A stretch of DNA of 59,512 nt, counting the filler, from Circinaria calcarea (taxonomy: Eukaryota), in the NCBI GenBank assembly GCA_051942165.1. It is 7 parts of 7 records of this genome, joined end to end, with 100 filler letters (N's around TTAATTAATTAA, not from the genome) between each part and the next. Parts side by side here need not be neighbours in the genome. Positions count along the whole stretch, not along the records: positions 34,084 to 42,497 come from JAVECS010001120.1; 6 more parts are not named here. One strand, written 5' to 3'. The notes under the pieces are model-generated. The model saw nothing but the letters and a program-made list of their open reading frames with translations. It was not told the DNA's origin and did not search any database. A program made the translations under genes and the position numbers. Every line of letters begins with the position of its first letter. The stretch's first letter is position 1. Below are positions 34,084-42,597 of this stretch, in pieces.

Positions 34084-34435
34084 GAAGGTTTTGTTATACA
34101 TAAGTGTTTGTTGTATCCAGCCAACTTCGACTATGAGTCTCATATATACTCTCAGTAATAGCAAGACCAGCGCTCATTTGGGAATCCTTACCACGCGGAA
34201 GCGAATGCGTCCATTCTGGTATCAAGTTAACATCTCGTGAGATATTAACTCCCACCGCAAAACCTCCAAGCCCGACGATGGCAATTATAGTTAATAGAAG
34301 ACAAAATAGCAACCATCTGGTAGACTTGGTTAACGTGTCCAAAGTGTGGATCTGCTTCTCAATCGTCGTAGGATTCTCGTACTCGGAGGGAAGCCGTGAA
34401 TACCGGCTGGAACGAAAACATTTCAAGGATATCAT
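34084..34435 (-). CDS. Probable UstYa/DUF3328-family protein, N-terminal part only (cut by gap)
   Basis: YSRL motif and N-terminal TM helix. Intron 34131-34191 gives VEVGWIQQTLMYNKTF, resembling the DUF3328 N-terminal YNxTF segment. The HxxHC motifs would lie beyond the gap and are not seen. Confidence 0.6.
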
Positions 34436-35350
34436 ATCCAGATATCAAAAAATAGTTCAATGTGGTTGAATTTTGTATGAGACCAAAAATCATATAGTTC
34501 TGGCTCAGCTCCCAAACAGCCTATTATTCCACAAAGTTCAACCTAAGGCGCTGAAGCAGAATAGAATGAAAAAGTTATGGCTTTTTAGAGATAAAAGAAA
34601 AAGTCACGGCTGTTTCATTTCATGCCTTACAGAAGCTAACTTTTTCTAGGCGGGGGCTATCCGATCCTATGTACCTTGATTCGGCTACATGCAGGTGTGA
34701 CTCCTCGCCCTGAAAATCGCTGCGGCAGGCATTATTAACCTAGGAGTATGATGCCATGCACTCCGAAAGTACCACTCGCGGCAAGTATACTTTTAGGTCA
34801 CAGTCGTCAGACCCTAATTACGGCAGGTGCATCTCATGTTTTCATTATTTTCTCCCCTACCTCTTGCCGTTGTTGCATCGGTCGTTTCTTGGCGTTAAGC
34901 TCCAAATGCTGTGCGCGATCAGCATCATTGCCTAAATATGACGTAGTACGGAAACTCTACCGTTGTTTGAGAGTGTGTTCCTGATAGCTGTGCCGTTCAA
35001 GTATTGGAACAGCTAACATAGCACTGTGGTAATGCCTTAGAGCCCAAGACTAAGGTATGTGGGAGGCACGAGGGATACGATGGTTGTACGCATTCTATAC
35101 GAGAGCCTATCATTACAGAAGAAGATTTTCCCTATACGCCAAGACGCCAGTAAAGCGAGGTATCGCCACCCCTGAACATGCACGGCAACTGGCAAAGCCT
35201 AATAATGAGTCGCACTAACTGGGCCTGCCTGTTATGAGAACCATTTCAGCAAGCATCTATTGATATCGCAGCACTTCTTATTCATTTGATATTTTGCAAA
35301 GTTCTGATCTCTAAGTTCACTTCTACTGTTACCACCTATTCTGAACCACG

Positions 35351-36383
35351 ATGTATGAAGATAAGAATGATTCTGCTGCCCAATTATCTCTGGATGATAG
35401 CTCCGGCAATGACGAGGAAGGGCAATTGCTTGACTCGCTTGAAAATCCTCGAAGCATAACACACCTAAATCTTCAATCCAGAAAGAAGCGACCGATTAGC
35501 TGGTTATGGTTACTCCTCATATCTCACTCTTTTATGTTGTTAATTTACTACTCTACTTTTGTCTACCTCATAAGCAAGAGCACCAAATCTGAGAAGACTA
35601 TGGAGCTTATTCCATGTAAGGAGTGGACATTCAGTACCATCTGTTATTCTTTCTAACAAATTCAAAGTACCTGCGCGCAGTGCACTTCAGTGGGAGACTC
35701 GATATTTTCCAACCGACATCGTAAACAACTCCTTTGCTGGAGAGCCCCGTCCCGAATTGGAAGCTGCCTGGCACAACCTCTTGAGAAGTACAAGCATATT
35801 TGGGAGTTATGACGATCTCTGACTCACCATGCTATAGACGACAATATTCGAGTCGCCAACGCTGATCTTGACGCGCTCAACTTAACTACTGTATATCTTA
35901 AAGATAGCCCTTTCGGAGTTGCCTCGTTAGGTGTCTACCATGGTTTGCATTGCCTGGTACATCTAAATCCTCAAGGATATTTCACGCTGCTTACTGTGCA
36001 CAGAAAAAAGTGCGTCACATGGCCTACAAAGATCAGTACCACAAAGGAAAAGATGAACTCCAAATGTGGAGGGAGATGAAACACGTGGGTACGTTGCTTC
36101 AAGCTCTTTTGCTGGCAGCGCCAAACCACTGACCAAAAATCCCTCTGTAGATCATTGTATCGAGTATATCAGAGAAAGCTTAATGTGCAAGCCGGACTTG
36201 TCTCTGGTGACTTTCTTTTGGATCAACGAGACAGCTCAGCACACGGATGATTCCTCTGGGCTATATCCGTCTCAGAATGATGACGGTCTTCACGAATGTG
36301 CTCAATGGGATAGTATCAGCAAATGGGCTGGCGAGCGTGTGTTTGATCTTTCCCGCAGGGATCTGCTTCGCAAGCCTGTATAA
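35351..36383 (+). CDS. UstYa/DUF3328-family HxxHC oxidase
   Basis: N-terminal TM helix, FAGEPRPELEAAWHNLL, two HxxHC motifs (VYHGLHCL and spliced HVDHCIEYIRESLMC) and HECAQWDSISKWA. Confidence 0.92.
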
Positions 36384-36609
36384 ACGCTTTCCCAGGAAAG
36401 CCATAGAATAATGTAAAGGGTACAAAATTAATTAATGCAGTTTCTTGACAGCTTGGTTGGAATGCGTAGGGCTTACCGGGTCACGTGTCGTTTACGAATT
36501 TATGACGTCCACACCTCTCACACCCCGTAAAAGCTTTTCTATGTACCGTTACTTTAGTTTAGTCACGCACGGATAGCGTTATATGCATGCTATCACACAT
36601 GCTGATCAA

Positions 36610-36835
36610 CAAGCTTATGCAGAAGCACTGCCCGTTCTGGCACTTAGGTTGAGACTCTTGGCAATTTTGAGGCGTAACAACACGTCTCTTCAGCTTCGGC
36701 TTTCAGCCAATCGTCCTTCGTACACTCATCATCCAAAGCAAATACTACCTTATACCTTGAAGGCTTGTGCAGAAGTACTGCCCGTTCCAGGCTCTTAGGT
36801 TGAGACTCTCGGCAACCCTGAGGCGCAACCACAAC
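36610..36835. repeat. Imperfect direct duplication of about 75 bp (copies at about 36610 and 36760)
   Basis: gcagaagcactgcccgttctggcacttaggttgagactct versus gcagaagtactgcccgttccaggctcttaggttgagactct. Confidence 0.8.
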
Positions 36836-37338
36836 TTATAGCCGGACAAGCCATGCTCTAGCCTCTAAGAAACCTCGTCATCACGTTTCCGTTTGGCATG
36901 AGCTAAGGGTGTTTACCCCATAATCACATCATGGACAATTCGATCGGCTTTGGATAAATCCTCTGGAAGCCCATCATTATGCACAGCGCCGCCAGTAGTC
37001 CCGACAGTCCAGCTCAGCCCCCGGACTGTGATTGCCAGTCCGGTCCGGAGCGTGGTAGCCTGCCAGTACAATCTGTATTATCAGTCTGTTCGGGAATTAC
37101 GTACATGGGTAAATGACCTTGGTGAGCAAAAGCATTGACCCCGTTTACAAACCTCTGCCCTAGCATAATATATCTATATATGTAGAGACCGTAAACCATT
37201 CTCGGGACCCAGTGCTCGCACTTTCACCCATATTGCTGGTAACTCCTAACAAGCAATATCCACCACATACTCCAACCTATCTCGCCAATACACCAATCCG
37301 TAAAACCGCCAAAAGACACCCTTACGGTCAGGTCAATC

Positions 37339-37607
37339 ATGCATCTCCATCTCTCCCTCGTCTCCCTCATCCTTATAACCGCAACAAGCTTAGCGGTCCC
37401 CCTTCCGCACCGTAAGTCCCTTCCCAAGCATCAGCTTCACACCTCAGTCAGCTCATCAGTACTCCAGCAACTAACAACCTCGCTCTTGTCACGCCTCTAA
37501 ATGATCTCACGTCCCGCGCGGCCGAGCCCTTAGACGCCGACGACGAAGTGGTCTACCCGTCCGATCCCAAGTCCGCGCGCGTGTGGTATTATGCCCACAG
37601 GAACTGA
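37339..37607 (+). CDS. Small secreted peptide (70 aa), candidate RiPP precursor
   Basis: Exons 37339-37411 and 37468-37607 with intron gtaagt...tccag (56 nt). Product MHLHLSLVSLILITATSLAVPLPHPTNNLALVTPLNDLTSRAAEPLDADDEVVYPSDPKSARVWYYAHRN*. Confidence 0.7.
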
Positions 37608-38363
37608 GCTTGCTAGGACGCTGGCCGATAAAGAAATCGATTTCTACGAGTAGAGTATTTGGGAACATATGACTGTAAGAGCGGATATGAATCATTGATT
37701 GAGGTCAGGAAAACCAGGTGTTTCATAGAAATTTCTTGTTTTATCATGAGATGTGGCGGTAGACTATATGATTTATTAGAACAAGAAAGCCTTGGGCCTG
37801 CTTTTTCTCCGCGTCAAACCTACGAAGCACTTGATGAATGGTCAATCAGAAATAATATGAAGCTGAATTAACCTTCGCCTGGATCTACGCTAGGGGCAAG
37901 GCGCGCAATGTTAGGGCCCAAGGACACTCCATCTGGGCATGCGTGGAATTGGGTTACGAACTAAACTAGCTATCGGTGCTACAGGTTGACCCGAGCGGTC
38001 GAGGATCGATACCTGCAAAATGAACGGGTGGGTGGGAGAAGTGCTCCGGAGGCAAAGTGCCGAAGATAAGCAGGACGAAGCCCAGTAGCCGAAAGTCGTT
38101 GCCAGACTCTGATTAGTGCGACTGGCAACGGTATTTAGCTTGCGGAGTGGAGCGCAACGACTAGCACCGGGGGGGGCCACCCGTAGTGACAAACGCAAGG
38201 CTGCGAACGTTTACACCATCCGGCCTCAACAAGGTAGTAGTTCGATAGCACTATGTGCGAGAAACTCACTGGCTGAGTGCCAGACAAGACGCCGAGATTG
38301 CAGGAACGATGTTTTCATACGTGGCCAGGGGCGTACAGTATGCCCCTAGACCCAGGTAGGCCT

Positions 38364-38488
38364 TACGAAGGAGTTCGTATTTGGTCTTCCTATGGGCAGG
38401 CGGAATTACCATATGGTAAGCGAAAAGCCCCCCACATGTTTTGGGGGCGTATCGTGGAGACTACTATGTAAATACGAACTCCTTCGTA
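38364..38488. mobile_element. Possible Tc1/mariner-type MITE (121 bp, 17-bp TIRs, TA flanks)
   Basis: TA-CGAAGGAGTTCGTATTT at 38364-38382 and AAATACGAACTCCTTCG-TA at 38470-38488 are exact reverse complements. Confidence 0.5.
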
Positions 38489-39545
38489 GCATCCGATCGT
38501 TATCACGAACTTTCTCCATCCCATTTTCACGCTGTAATAAAGCGGCACGTCTATGACCTCCAAAGAGATGCATTGGACCGCACGAGGCCGACGTTGCATC
38601 GGCTTGACAGTTCGCAGCCATCCGTTTCTACTGTAGCTGCATGGGAAACACGAAGGAGTTTCGCATTTATTGAGCGATAGTCTGCCCGCATATATATAAT
38701 ATGTAGTGACCAATCAACTGCCTGGTATCTGCAGATCATATCAAGGAGTTCGTATCTTTTAAGCGATAACTTCTCACCACATTCCTGTTTTTGTGATACC
38801 TGTCACCCTGCAACTTCGCAACCACAGCACTCCAGTAGGTGTCGCTGAAGCGCCGGCCTCCCTGCACTGCATTTATGACACCAGGCTGCAGCTCCATGTG
38901 CTGGCCTCCGCATAACCCACTACCCATCTCGAATGCTGCACATCTGCCAAGCTCACCCAGAAGTTTTCGCCCGCGGCCTAGGCCCCGTCAAAGGATCGGA
39001 TCTACTGCGTGTAATCAGCAGCCTGGCACGGGCAGAAACCCAACCGCCAATGGATGCTCAGTAAAGATCCTTCTGCCGCTTCGAGGTTTGAGCTACACAA
39101 CGATTCCGTATGAGCTGATTCGTACTCGAGAAGCTCCTTCGAGACGGTTGCCCTTCCAAGTCGCTAAACCGAGACGGCTTATGCCGTGGAAAGTAACCAT
39201 CTTACATCGCGCAATCTCATGTTTGGACAACGACTATGCCTTTTATGCACCTGATTGACATGTGTCACGGGCCTTTGGGCTGGCCGGAGGTGTGGAAAGA
39301 AGCTGGCGAGGTGTAACATTATATGCAGAATGATACACGTCGTATGCGCGGGAACCTGGAGCTCGCCCCCAATAACGTGGGGTAGAAGATATTCGCATCA
39401 ACAGACCCATACATAAACGGGTACTACTTTTTGGATTATTTCACTTGTTATCTTTAAAAGTTATCGTCGCGTGAGTCCGTTGATCTTCTTGAAAAAGTTT
39501 GAACCAGTTGCTTCTGGTATCAATTATCCTTTCATCCGCTTGAAA

Positions 39546-41001
39546 ATGGTCCAGTCAAGTGGCGGAGTAATTGCCATAACTGTGGCTTTTACCTGTCTTG
39601 CTTTTATTTTTGTGGGACTCCGCGTATGGTCAAGGCGAGTGAAGAAACTAGACCTGGGCGCCGATGATGTTCTTATTCTGCTAGCTACGGTATGTCATTA
39701 ACAATGGAAATGGTAATGCGTCCAGCTGTTTAATTGACGAAGTTCTTCCATGTCCTGTGCCTGGCAATACCTATTATTATTCGTAAGTTCCACAGGCATT
39801 TTCCATTACCATATTAAAATTTCCCATCCATCTGATTTGAGTGTGGTCTAATACTCTGCATCAGTGTGCGCAGATGCCAACCTGGGTAACCATGTTCAGA
39901 GAACACCTGATGGGAACCCAATTCCTCCATCATACTTATTCAACGTAGTAAGAGTCCCAGAGATCTTCAACCACCCATTTGTTGTACTGATTGGATCCTT
40001 CAAGCTTCAAAGAATCTTCGAAACAACCCATGTCATACCCATAACTCTAGCCAAATGCAGCATCCTATTTTTCTACAAGCGAATTTTCCGCGGTCCCATC
40101 TTCGAAGCAAGTGTATGGACTTCTATCACCCTAGCGATTGTCTGGGGCGTCAGCTTCTTCTTCGCCGTACTTTTTCTCTGCACACCCGTTTCTACCGTCG
40201 TTCAACACGGTCCTTCTGCGCCAGGCGTTTCTTGCATCAACGTACTCCAAGTCTACTACTCGCTTGCCATCTCAGATTTCATCATCGACTTCATTATCTT
40301 GGCTATCCCTATCCCATTCGTATGGCGCTTACAAATGCCACCGAGGCATAAGCTCGCTGTATCTGCAATCTTCCTTCTAGGCTGCTTGTGAGTGTTGTCA
40401 TCCCGTTCGAGGCTTTGTAGGCTCCGTAGCTATTGACTCGCAAAGAGGTTAACCTTCGTCAACAGGGCAATTGCAGCTAGCATTACACGAATGGTCACCT
40501 TTATCAACGCTGCCAACCTCCCTCCAGATAAGCAAGTGGATTATACCTGTATAACTCATCTTCTAGCTTCATCCCATAACATGACCCACTAACCCCCCTT
40601 CACCAGACTACACCGCCATAACTTTTTACTGGACCGCCATCGAAGCCTCCCTCGCCATCACGAGCGCCTGCCTCCCAACCCTCCGTCCTCTATTCCAAGG
40701 TTTCTCCCCCGAATCCATCATCAACTCCTTCCGCAGCGCCATCCGAAGCAACCGCAGGACTGGCAGCAGTAAGCAGAGTGAGGCTAGCAACGGCAGCCAG
40801 CAGGGCAACTTCAGCGCAGCGTGGAATCATAAAGAGACAAACTCCTCATCAATGAGGCTCCACCAAACAGAAATGAGTAGTCACAACTCGGAGGCTACGG
40901 TGGATGGAATCGCGCTGCATGAGGTGCCTAAGGGGATGAGTCGGAACAAGGATGGGATTTTGGTGCAGACGAGCTTTGCGACGGGGAATGAGGCTGTTTA
41001 G
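39546..41001 (+). CDS. PTH11-like (SAT4/rhodopsin-domain) integral membrane protein
   Basis: FVGLRVWSR..LGADDVLI, AKCSILFFYKRIF, DFIILAIPIPFVWRLQM..KLAVSAIFLLG and WTAIEASLAITSACLPTLRP. Multi-exon. Confidence 0.9.
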
Positions 41002-42597
41002 GATGAAAGGGAGGGGGACTTGAAAGAGTGATTGGACACAGATGTGCGCCTGATGAGAGGTCTCCCAGCAACCTAGCTTCTTGTCACGACTCAGCCCCGT
41101 GCCATTCCATTCAAGCTACTATGGCTCACCGCACACACGTGGCTCGCATAGAGCATTCAGGGTCCCCACATGGTCCTTCCTTTCCACAAAGGCTATGGAA
41201 TACTACCAATTGTTTGATACGTGTGTGAAACGGCTGTGGATTTGCTACGTGGGAGACTTGCTACTCATATACACGAATGACACTAACGCTACGTCTAATA
41301 CGGTCCATAGGGGCGAGTTCCAACGCCAATCCATACGTGACGTCACTTGCAAATCGCAACTGTGCCTACAATATCGCACTTTCCAACGCATATACAATAT
41401 CACGCCCCAAGTCCAAACAGAACCCAGACCTACCCCTTTTTCCTTTCTCCTTTCTAACAAGCCCCCCCGTAGCCGAAGGGTTTCCTTGCTTTCCTTTCCT
41501 TTCCTTGCAAGCGAGTATATAGGCAACTTGGTACCCCACCCGCTCCTACCCCTATCCCTACCCCTACCCCTCTAATCTCTTCCCGAAGTAGTAAAGTACC
41601 AAGCGGTAGCAAGAAAAACCCGATAAAAAAAACCGAAAAGTATGGAAATTACTACTGAGAGATGGAAAGGGGGTTTGGGTTCCGCGTGCATGACTTTCTT
41701 TGGTTTAAAATTGGCATGCTTTATATCTTCCTCTATCAATTTCCCTGTAAGGATCCTTTACGAATAGTATGATGATCTTACGAATAAAGGGTCGGTAAAC
41801 TGTGTGATAATGTGCTCAATTGGGTTCGCATAGCGTATAAATTATCGCTAAAGAATTCTGGTGTGACGCTTCGCGAGGAAAACCCTTCTCGCTAAGCTAA
41901 TACCTCGTGACCTCGGTGTATAATTCACCCGTCGGGTTCGTAGGGGGTTCTCGGGTAGAGCCCTTGTAATTATTTTAAAGAATAATATCCGCTTTTCATC
42001 TCGCCAATAATCATACCACGTTTCTATGCCGGCTTTTTTTTTTCAAGAACATATAATAGCTTCGAGCCCCCGCCCTCAGCACCGTCGTTAAATATAAATT
42101 TTTTAAATTTGGAATCTAATTAATATTTCCTCCCTCTTTTGGCTCTTCCGGTATAATTGGTGCTTTCCCGCGAGATTAATAATATTGCAGGTCTGAAATG
42201 GCCTAATTCTTTTATGAGCTTAACTCTCCAGGTACTTATATATAGCGCGCTCGTTAGGGAATGTTTATTAGAATACCCGATGCTCTAATTAAATTCCTTT
42301 ATCTTTTTCGGTGTTACTGAGGGGACACCCACTGAGTTATCCGGAAACCTTTGAAAGCCGTTTCGCGTAGATGCAGTATCTTTGCGAGAAGCTTGGGTAT
42401 GGAACGGGTTTTGTGCGCATAATTAACTCTTAGACGGTGGATGCGAAGCCAAAATGCAAGCGCAAAGTTTGAATTATCTGGGTAAGATTTTTTTGTGNNN
42501 NNNNNNNNNNNNNNNNNNNNNNNNNNNNNNNNNNNNNNNNNTTAATTAATTAANNNNNNNNNNNNNNNNNNNNNNNNNNNNNNNNNNNNNNNNNNNN

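Follow-up and report, generated by a model that had tools for sequence, protein, structure and literature searches.

We have analysed a window of 59,512 nucleotides (nt) of the fungus Circinaria calcarea (GCA_051942165.1). The window, by which we mean the whole stretch of DNA studied, is a chain of short contigs with N-spacers between them, and the cluster described here lies on one of these, C1120 (G000:C1120, JAVECS010001120.1), at positions 34084-42497. The fungal assembly that was searched comprises 31.5 Mb in 5,512 contigs. The locus holds two genes for DUF3328/UstYa oxidases arranged head-to-head (genes A and B), a small spliced gene for a predicted secreted precursor peptide, and a gene for a PTH11-like membrane receptor (Table 1). 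Judging from sequence comparison, C1120 very probably encodes a dikaritin-like ribosomal pathway for a cross-linked peptide, in which the precursor carries a single unit.

The HxxHC motifs of gene A (HGLHC and HVDHC) start at residues 163 and 195, its last exon matches PF11807 at 3e-14, and five fungal homologues are 62-64% identical to this exon. An alternative splice model of 271 aa also fits, and the gene A profile found no match among solved structures. C1120 ends inside gene B, and the portion within the window shows no HxxHC motif. An exact 141-nt overlap joins contig C3667 to the start of C1120 and so yields the complete gene (about 243 aa), which then carries HQLHC and HMRHC, a PF11807 match at 7.6e-15 and a transmembrane hydropathy peak of 2.67 at residue 43; the view of gene B as a mere fragment was rejected on this account. 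A 30-mer from the overlap was found only in these two contigs among the loci examined. We infer that genes B and A share a promoter in the divergent region between them. A first-pass annotation had proposed the complete two-motif oxidase, its probable head-to-head partner and a hidden 70-aa gene with a signal-like start about 950 bp downstream, and all three stand. Another DUF3328 gene is split over C3515 and C1020 (L063, L072), with a 141-nt overlap, and contig counts overstate the number of loci because of such splits.

Table 1. Features of contig C1120, in window positions
Feature	Position	Strand	Details
Gene B, second DUF3328/UstYa oxidase, 5' part	34084-34435	-	ATG 34435; exon 1 34435-34192, exon 2 from ~34124
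Divergent intergenic region, genes B/A	34436-35350	.	sequence; head-to-head B/A layout recurs in metagenome locus L093
Gene A, DUF3328/UstYa oxidase	35351-36383	+	complete, five exons, 273 aa, one N-terminal transmembrane segment
Gene A exons	35351-35615, 35668-35787, 35838-35956, 36004-36088, 36151-36383	+	GT-AG introns, single stop
Direct repeat, ~70 nt	36613-36682, 36763-36833		84-92% identical, 150-nt spacing; between gene A and precursor
Precursor exon 1	37339-37411	+	73 nt; signal peptide, cleavage likely after residue 19; then phase-1 intron
Precursor intron (predicted)	37412-37467	+	56 nt, GTAAGT...CAG; alternative in-frame acceptor 37533
Single Arg, short spacer, acidic leader motif	37515-37547	+	KR at the same place in relatives P0012 and P0015
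Candidate core VVY to VW (13 residues), 6-residue Tyr-rich tail, stop	37548-37607	+
Inverted repeat, 22 nt	38472-38493, 38734-38755		82%; between precursor and receptor gene
PTH11-like (PF20684) membrane receptor gene	39546-41001	+	~376 aa, six exons (junctions approximate), intact
Dispersed repeat, ~220 nt	~41745-41965		at least ~40 copies at 88-94% identity (from 307 candidates)

The precursor and its family

The precursor begins at an ATG at 37339, 955 bp past the stop of gene A, and its predicted spliced product has 70 aa. Hydropathy peaks at 3.0 over residues 5-13, and the N-terminus is signal-like as judged from hydropathy and cleavage pattern alone. None of the dibasic sites KR, RR, KK or RK occurs in the 70 residues. 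An unspliced precursor was rejected, with a stop reached after 53 residues. Five acceptors are possible and the acidic unit is in frame with two of them, 37467, which gives 70 aa, and 37533, which gives 48 aa and leaves the C-terminal unit unchanged; the former is favoured because the same spacer follows the KR site in the relatives P0012 and P0015. A phase-1 intron following a first exon of 67-82 nt fits all seven other modelled precursor loci, the exon being exactly 73 nt long in C1815 and C832, and the branch site of the C1120 intron is a weak match.

The conserved part of the precursor consists of the acidic leader followed by VVY[PS]...VW. The pattern for this unit matches once on C1120 and no tandem core repeats are seen, with room left for a degenerate second unit. 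Among the 12 aligned rows D22, D24, V27 and Y29 are invariant, and the core contains the Tyr that is present in 12/12. The C1120 unit outscores shuffled sequences when compared with C1815, P0019 and P0031 (0/2000 in each case), and through a two-residue insertion its candidate core is two residues longer than in the closest relatives. The single long core without KR that had been put forward at first pass is borne out as regards the one unit and the missing dibasic sites, but a core of 19 residues is not established because nothing in the closest relatives corresponds to the last six residues.

PF11807 gives 71 matches in the genome, on 36 contigs that make up 0.98% of the bases. Scanning these DUF3328 contigs revealed small secreted genes with the unit D-x-D-[DE]-x-[VI]-[AV]-Y, present once each at C1120, C830 and C832, as two motifs without KR at C283, and as repeats set apart by KR at C883 (three) and C1815 (two). 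When the whole genome was searched with a DNA pattern for the unit, 12 matches appeared on seven contigs (reversed control 3), six of which carry PF11807, the exception being C874; this test is partly circular because the pattern was tuned on DUF3328-linked precursors, and it mainly shows the rarity of the unit elsewhere. A relaxed pattern (38 matches against 15 in the control) was dropped as background, all 26 extra matches lying off the DUF3328 contigs.

Direct searches with the precursor returned only itself and one weak match in its own genome, no usable match in ESM Atlas and none in Pfam, and relatives surfaced only through profiles built from the paralogues. These unit profiles found 28 and 88 proteins (107 distinct) across many Pezizomycotina orders, the larger set coming from 8,000 scored candidates in a search that favoured short proteins. 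Of nine family proteins tested none had a Pfam match above the cut-off, and a public protein from a lichen-forming fungus is identical to one of the modelled paralogous precursors. By eye we could tell apart three types, VVY[PS]...W (hereafter Y...W), [IV]AYAW (AYAW) and a double-motif type ending in YAYH. Family members have mostly two to three units. Of the 58 matches with a signal peptide by a crude call, 12 have at least three units together with dibasic sites and 25 lack any dibasic site; 11 scored as one-unit proteins, four of them with extra degenerate units and four with apparent intron read-through, which leaves three (P0008, P0015 and P0083). The C1120 unit fits the lichen Y...W type, with its two-residue insertion and a unique six-residue tail, and also aligns gap-free to the YAYH type. 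As far as sequence can tell, the predicted C1120 precursor belongs, with its one unit, to a family that is widespread in the Pezizomycotina and marked by an acidic D-x-D-[DE]-x-V-V-Y unit, and the first-pass picture of an isolated new type has to be given up.

Several further observations concern this family. The YAYH-type double-motif precursors are single-copy and usually without KR, and the last 25 residues of P0086, P0088, P0090, P0093, P0101, P0105 and similar proteins are nearly invariant across distant classes; a precursor of this type looks like a conserved signal. One that is near-identical to that of C283 lies on C874 (L087:6362-8400), 1.5 kb from the end of a contig with no DUF3328 gene that also bears a PF20684 receptor, a UbiA prenyltransferase, an S-adenosylmethionine methyltransferase and an alpha/beta hydrolase; a search for an overlap joining C874 to a DUF3328 contig failed to find one. 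C4784, C5272 and C1815 (L040, L071 and L067) join by 141-nt overlaps into a paralogous locus with a B-type oxidase, an A-type oxidase, a two-unit precursor and a receptor. More precursor candidates adjoin DUF3328 genes at L056:4701 (C1887), L052:4435 (C253), L051:5884 (C1349) and L058:6634 (C812), three of them KR/RR-repeat proteins of other types and one a 54-aa non-repeat secreted peptide with an acidic, Tyr-containing end. Scans beside the C3961/C5157 oxidases and on the receptor-bearing C52, C946, C320 and C195 found no precursor, such scans being known to miss some real ones (C830).

Pairing of oxidases and precursor

Given the partial circularity of the pattern test, the independent evidence for linkage comes from a metagenome search made with the enzyme only and from the named orthologues of gene A. 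The former gave 13 loci. Y...W-type precursors are present in two of the three closest (L092 and L093), and L093 also has the oxidases in the same layout as on C1120; the third, L094, has no upstream sequence. The named orthologues, from Nemania sp. FL0916, Aspergillus spectabilis and A. steynii, are respectively 2, 1 and 1 accession numbers away from two-unit, KR-less Y...W precursors (3/3), on a contig of equal length.

In a tree of the oxidases (51 rows and about 110 columns around the HxxHC motifs, with a bootstrap that had not settled) gene A falls in a 100/97 clade together with the enzymes of C1815, C3961, L092, L093 and L094 and the three named orthologues, which are Y...W-linked, and three of the AYAW-linked enzymes stand apart in a 100/99 clade of their own. 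The oxidase clades track precursor type. The match between enzyme clade and precursor type and the conserved linkage both lend support to the first-pass proposals that homologues of the precursor adjoin DUF3328 genes and that the precursor is cognate to the two oxidases.

The linked receptor and the methyltransferase

The first-pass annotation overlooked two further genes, a receptor and an O-methyltransferase. The receptor gene lies about 1.9 kb past the precursor and matches PF20684 at 5.4e-28; its approximate gene model shows five hydropathy peaks of at least 1.5, and no CFEM domain was seen in it. PF20684 has at least 165 matches in the genome (150/313 candidates scored), with a chance of 6-11% per 12 kb, and a gene of this kind is found at 7/7 motif loci, directly at six and indirectly at C830, which overlaps by 123 nt with C2752; the C2752 receptor had been placed among the cluster-linked ones before that overlap was found. 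The five best non-self paralogues of the C1120 receptor are all on DUF3328 contigs, against 11/84 overall, and the intact C1120 gene is about 58% identical to the nearest of its paralogues. In a receptor tree of 49 rows, which left out the C283, C253, C714 and C715 receptors, all 10 of the included DUF3328-linked receptors fall within one 13-row clade (88/90, below the starred level), with the C874 receptor outside it. Two sister pairs stand out, C1120 with C1815, both Y...W loci (100/99), and C883 with L103, AYAW loci from two different organisms (100/96). In this genome the PTH11-like receptor gene is a real member of the cluster. Among the metagenome loci a receptor is present at three of 13, two of these being seemingly the same locus, and none was found at the other ten, including the three closest; L092 and L093 have a transporter of the major facilitator superfamily (MFS) and a third oxidase instead. 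At the precursor loci C1349, C1887 and C812 the parts examined contain no receptor either.

Leftward extension of the contig, which the first-pass annotation had suggested as a way to more tailoring genes, did yield one. C3667 carries, flanking gene B, the 5' part of an O-methyltransferase, and a 94% copy of it on C1909 matches PF00891. Related O-methyltransferase genes occur at 5/7 motif loci, six of the 18 genome matches are on DUF3328 contigs against 0.18 expected, and PF00891 is also found in L092 and L093. The region C3667:1-1238 is duplicated at 94% in C1909:207-1427, on a contig with no PF11807 match, and may represent a recent duplication or a second haplotype. At the other end of C1120 the dispersed repeat (Table 1) is probably a transposon relic or a short element marking the right border.

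Proposed pathway, alternatives and meaning

Gene integrity, family membership and the conserved linkage of oxidase clade to precursor type are seen in the sequence data, and the later steps are proposed. The signal peptide would route the precursor into the secretory pathway, and the two membrane-anchored DUF3328 enzymes, putative binuclear copper oxidases, as CctR was shown to be, would recognise the acidic leader. They would then join the Tyr of VVY, which is invariant, by an oxidative cross-link to a residue downstream of it; the likeliest partner is the conserved Trp or one near it, the exact bond being a guess. To release the ring, the chain would be cut at the single Arg, not at KR sites, and trimmed by peptidases from unlinked genes, and the flanking O-methyltransferase probably methylates the peptide. 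The calculated mass of the 13 residues from VVY to VW is 1502.79 Da in linear form and 1500.77 Da at -2H; for a form of 19 residues the values are 2307.16 and 2305.14 Da. In the literature, DUF3328 proteins are described as binuclear copper enzymes that are anchored in the membrane and carry their HxxHC motifs on the luminal side (PMC12435403), and cyclisation through Tyr is known for the dikaritins, those characterised being mostly toxins (PMC9233826).

The cluster shares with the dikaritins (ustiloxin with UstA/UstYa/UstYb, phomopsin, asperipin-2a, victorin) a secreted Tyr-core precursor beside DUF3328 genes with two HxxHC motifs, an oxidase pair from two clades and a nearby methyltransferase; it differs in its single unit, in having no dibasic sites and no tyrosinase or peptidase seen, in a longer Tyr...Trp span and in the linked PTH11-like receptor. 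The epichloecyclin gig cluster (PMC10540207) has DUF3328-dependent Tyr cyclisation, as is proposed here. However, in the gig cluster, which has a kexin and a SET methyltransferase, the core stands between an LXKR site and a follower, whereas the C1120 core is preceded by an acidic leader without KR (the cores being compared by eye, not aligned). Single-repeat gigA-like precursors have been predicted in Aciculosporium take and Periglandula ipomoeae (PMC10540207), which gives the single core put forward at first pass a precedent. We regard C1120 as a variant of a dikaritin cluster and not as a new class, because two defining precursor features (repeats and dibasic sites) fail and because single-core precursors were already predicted.

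Clan R1 of the lichen RiPPs (peptides made on ribosomes and modified after translation) resembles C1120 in its two DUF3328 genes of two clades and its O-methyltransferase; no repeat precursor was found for it and a single core was speculated (PMC12048977). Unlike C1120, it has a tyrosinase and an FGE-sulfatase, and the main text of the paper holds no receptor term. The Kex2-processed repeat proteins (KEPs; PMC7329392) have a signal peptide, acidic residues near Tyr and DUF3328 neighbours in common with C1120, whose precursor nevertheless fails their definition (Umemura 2020) of at least three repeats of at least eight residues between dibasic sites. In the KEP catalogue, 0/6 queried Y...W- or YAYH-type accessions are listed, four of them from surveyed strains, and one three-unit AYAW relative is, which agrees with the first-pass expectation that repeat-based mining misses precursors of this kind. 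A motif search of the accessible PMC6339444 supplement gave no match.

As for the receptor, its PF20684 domain is that of the class XIV PTH11-like receptors, which are expanded in lichen fungi (bioRxiv 10.64898/2026.06.16.732702). For most G protein-coupled receptors (GPCRs) of fungi no ligand is known, missing agonists being the stated bottleneck (PMC13308352), and it has been stated that cluster metabolites may be the ligands of cluster GPCRs (PMC12842992). One PTH11-type gene has been reported in a putative Trichoderma RiPP region (PMC7099791). Full-text searches, figures and most subscription journals excepted, turned up no description of the unit motifs or of a PTH11-DUF3328 link, and within the same limits we found no link of class XIV receptors to a family of ribosomal peptide clusters.

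Some observations weigh against the pathway as proposed. The C1120 precursor is the most divergent member found, with its insertion and unique tail, and when longer relatives were sought with the second exon at E<=10, 0/9 candidates held up. The B-type enzymes of Y...W loci do not settle in the tree, and the C832 enzymes are not placed in the supported AYAW clades. The O-methyltransferase gene is cut off by the contig end and has its copy on a contig without PF11807, and neither tyrosinase, peptidase nor transporter was found on C1120 or C3667 (about 10.6 kb, at which the contigs end). Moreover, the substrates of DUF3328 enzymes include non-ribosomal peptides and polyketides (PMC12435403, PMC12048977). 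The relatives being mostly of two or three units, with only three clean single-unit proteins among the 58 bearing a signal, one could see in C1120 a decaying relic, a two-unit precursor whose second repeat was lost and which has ceased to be processed, with the oxidases still in place. The unique tail and the weak branch site would fit, but we find this quite improbable: the precursor gene has preserved its signal peptide, donor site and frame as well as the leader, the Tyr and the Trp, the two oxidases are intact and so is the receptor, and C830 and C832 likewise have a single-unit precursor next to an intact pair of oxidases. It is somewhat less improbable, and still unlikely, that the precursor consists of two short degenerate units (VVYP... 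and VWYY...) like those of C283 and C874, in which case the product would be longer or bicyclic and take in the Tyr-Tyr tail. A gap-free alignment of 23 residues to the C283/C874 type, in the same register and with scores of 49-54 (reached by 1 and 0 of 2000 shuffles), speaks for such an arrangement, against which gene A groups with the Y...W-type enzymes and apart from those of C283, the length of the signal exon and the receptor are closest to C1815, and the K-x-A-x-V-W ending of the lichen relatives resembles that of C1120.

The single-unit, dikaritin-like pathway can be extended to the receptor, and here the possibilities divide. The cross-linked peptide could be secreted as a signal for the PTH11-like receptor encoded next to it, with precursor, oxidases and receptor co-diversifying, an idea that we entertain only tentatively. 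It would account for PF20684 at every motif locus, for the five top paralogues all being on DUF3328 contigs, for the single clade of linked receptors and for the sister pairs within each precursor type. On the other hand, no receptor was found in L092-L094, in most of the metagenome loci or in the stretches of C1349, C1887 and C812; the clade is sub-starred, excludes C874 and was built with four receptors missing; the paralogous loci share ancestry, so that co-occurrence statistics overstate independence; and PTH11-like genes occur in other clusters too (4.2%; PMC12842992). The receptor might instead be an upstream regulator, through which an outside cue switches the cluster on, or a co-duplicated passenger, and the peptide a defence compound or effector acting on another organism. 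We would call this roughly an even bet. PTH11-like genes are found in polyketide synthase and nonribosomal peptide synthetase-like clusters, where a regulatory role has been proposed (PMC12842992), characterised dikaritins are, as said, mostly toxins, the MFS transporter takes the place of the receptor at non-lichen loci, and PF20684 genes are abundant in the genome. Such an origin sits less easily with receptor pairs that mirror precursor type, including C883 and L103 from different organisms, and with a gene kept intact at that distance from its nearest paralogue.

In the KEP survey only 31.8% of 9,399 DUF3328 counts were near a repeat precursor (PMC7329392), and the authors of the lichen survey, for whom the missing precursor was a mystery, speculated about single cores (PMC12048977). 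C1120 offers a searchable answer to part of this gap, in the form of a short acidic-leader unit whose KR-less one- and two-unit members escape repeat mining; the gap is not closed, because the strict motif marks only 6/36 DUF3328 contigs of this genome. For studies of DUF3328 recognition, too, the simplest substrate is a precursor of one unit with its two cognate oxidases, and the receptor linkage gives testable ligand-receptor pairs in a family limited by the lack of known agonists. If the receptor does read the peptide, a precursor of one to three units, an oxidase pair and a methyltransferase would form with it a self-contained signalling set, candidate ligands would be named for a clade of the largest and mostly orphan fungal receptor family, and many precursor-less DUF3328 clusters of lichen fungi would become hormone-like systems instead of toxin pathways. 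The recurrence of the receptor gene at related clusters of this genome hints that the cross-linked product may serve as a signal and not as a toxin.

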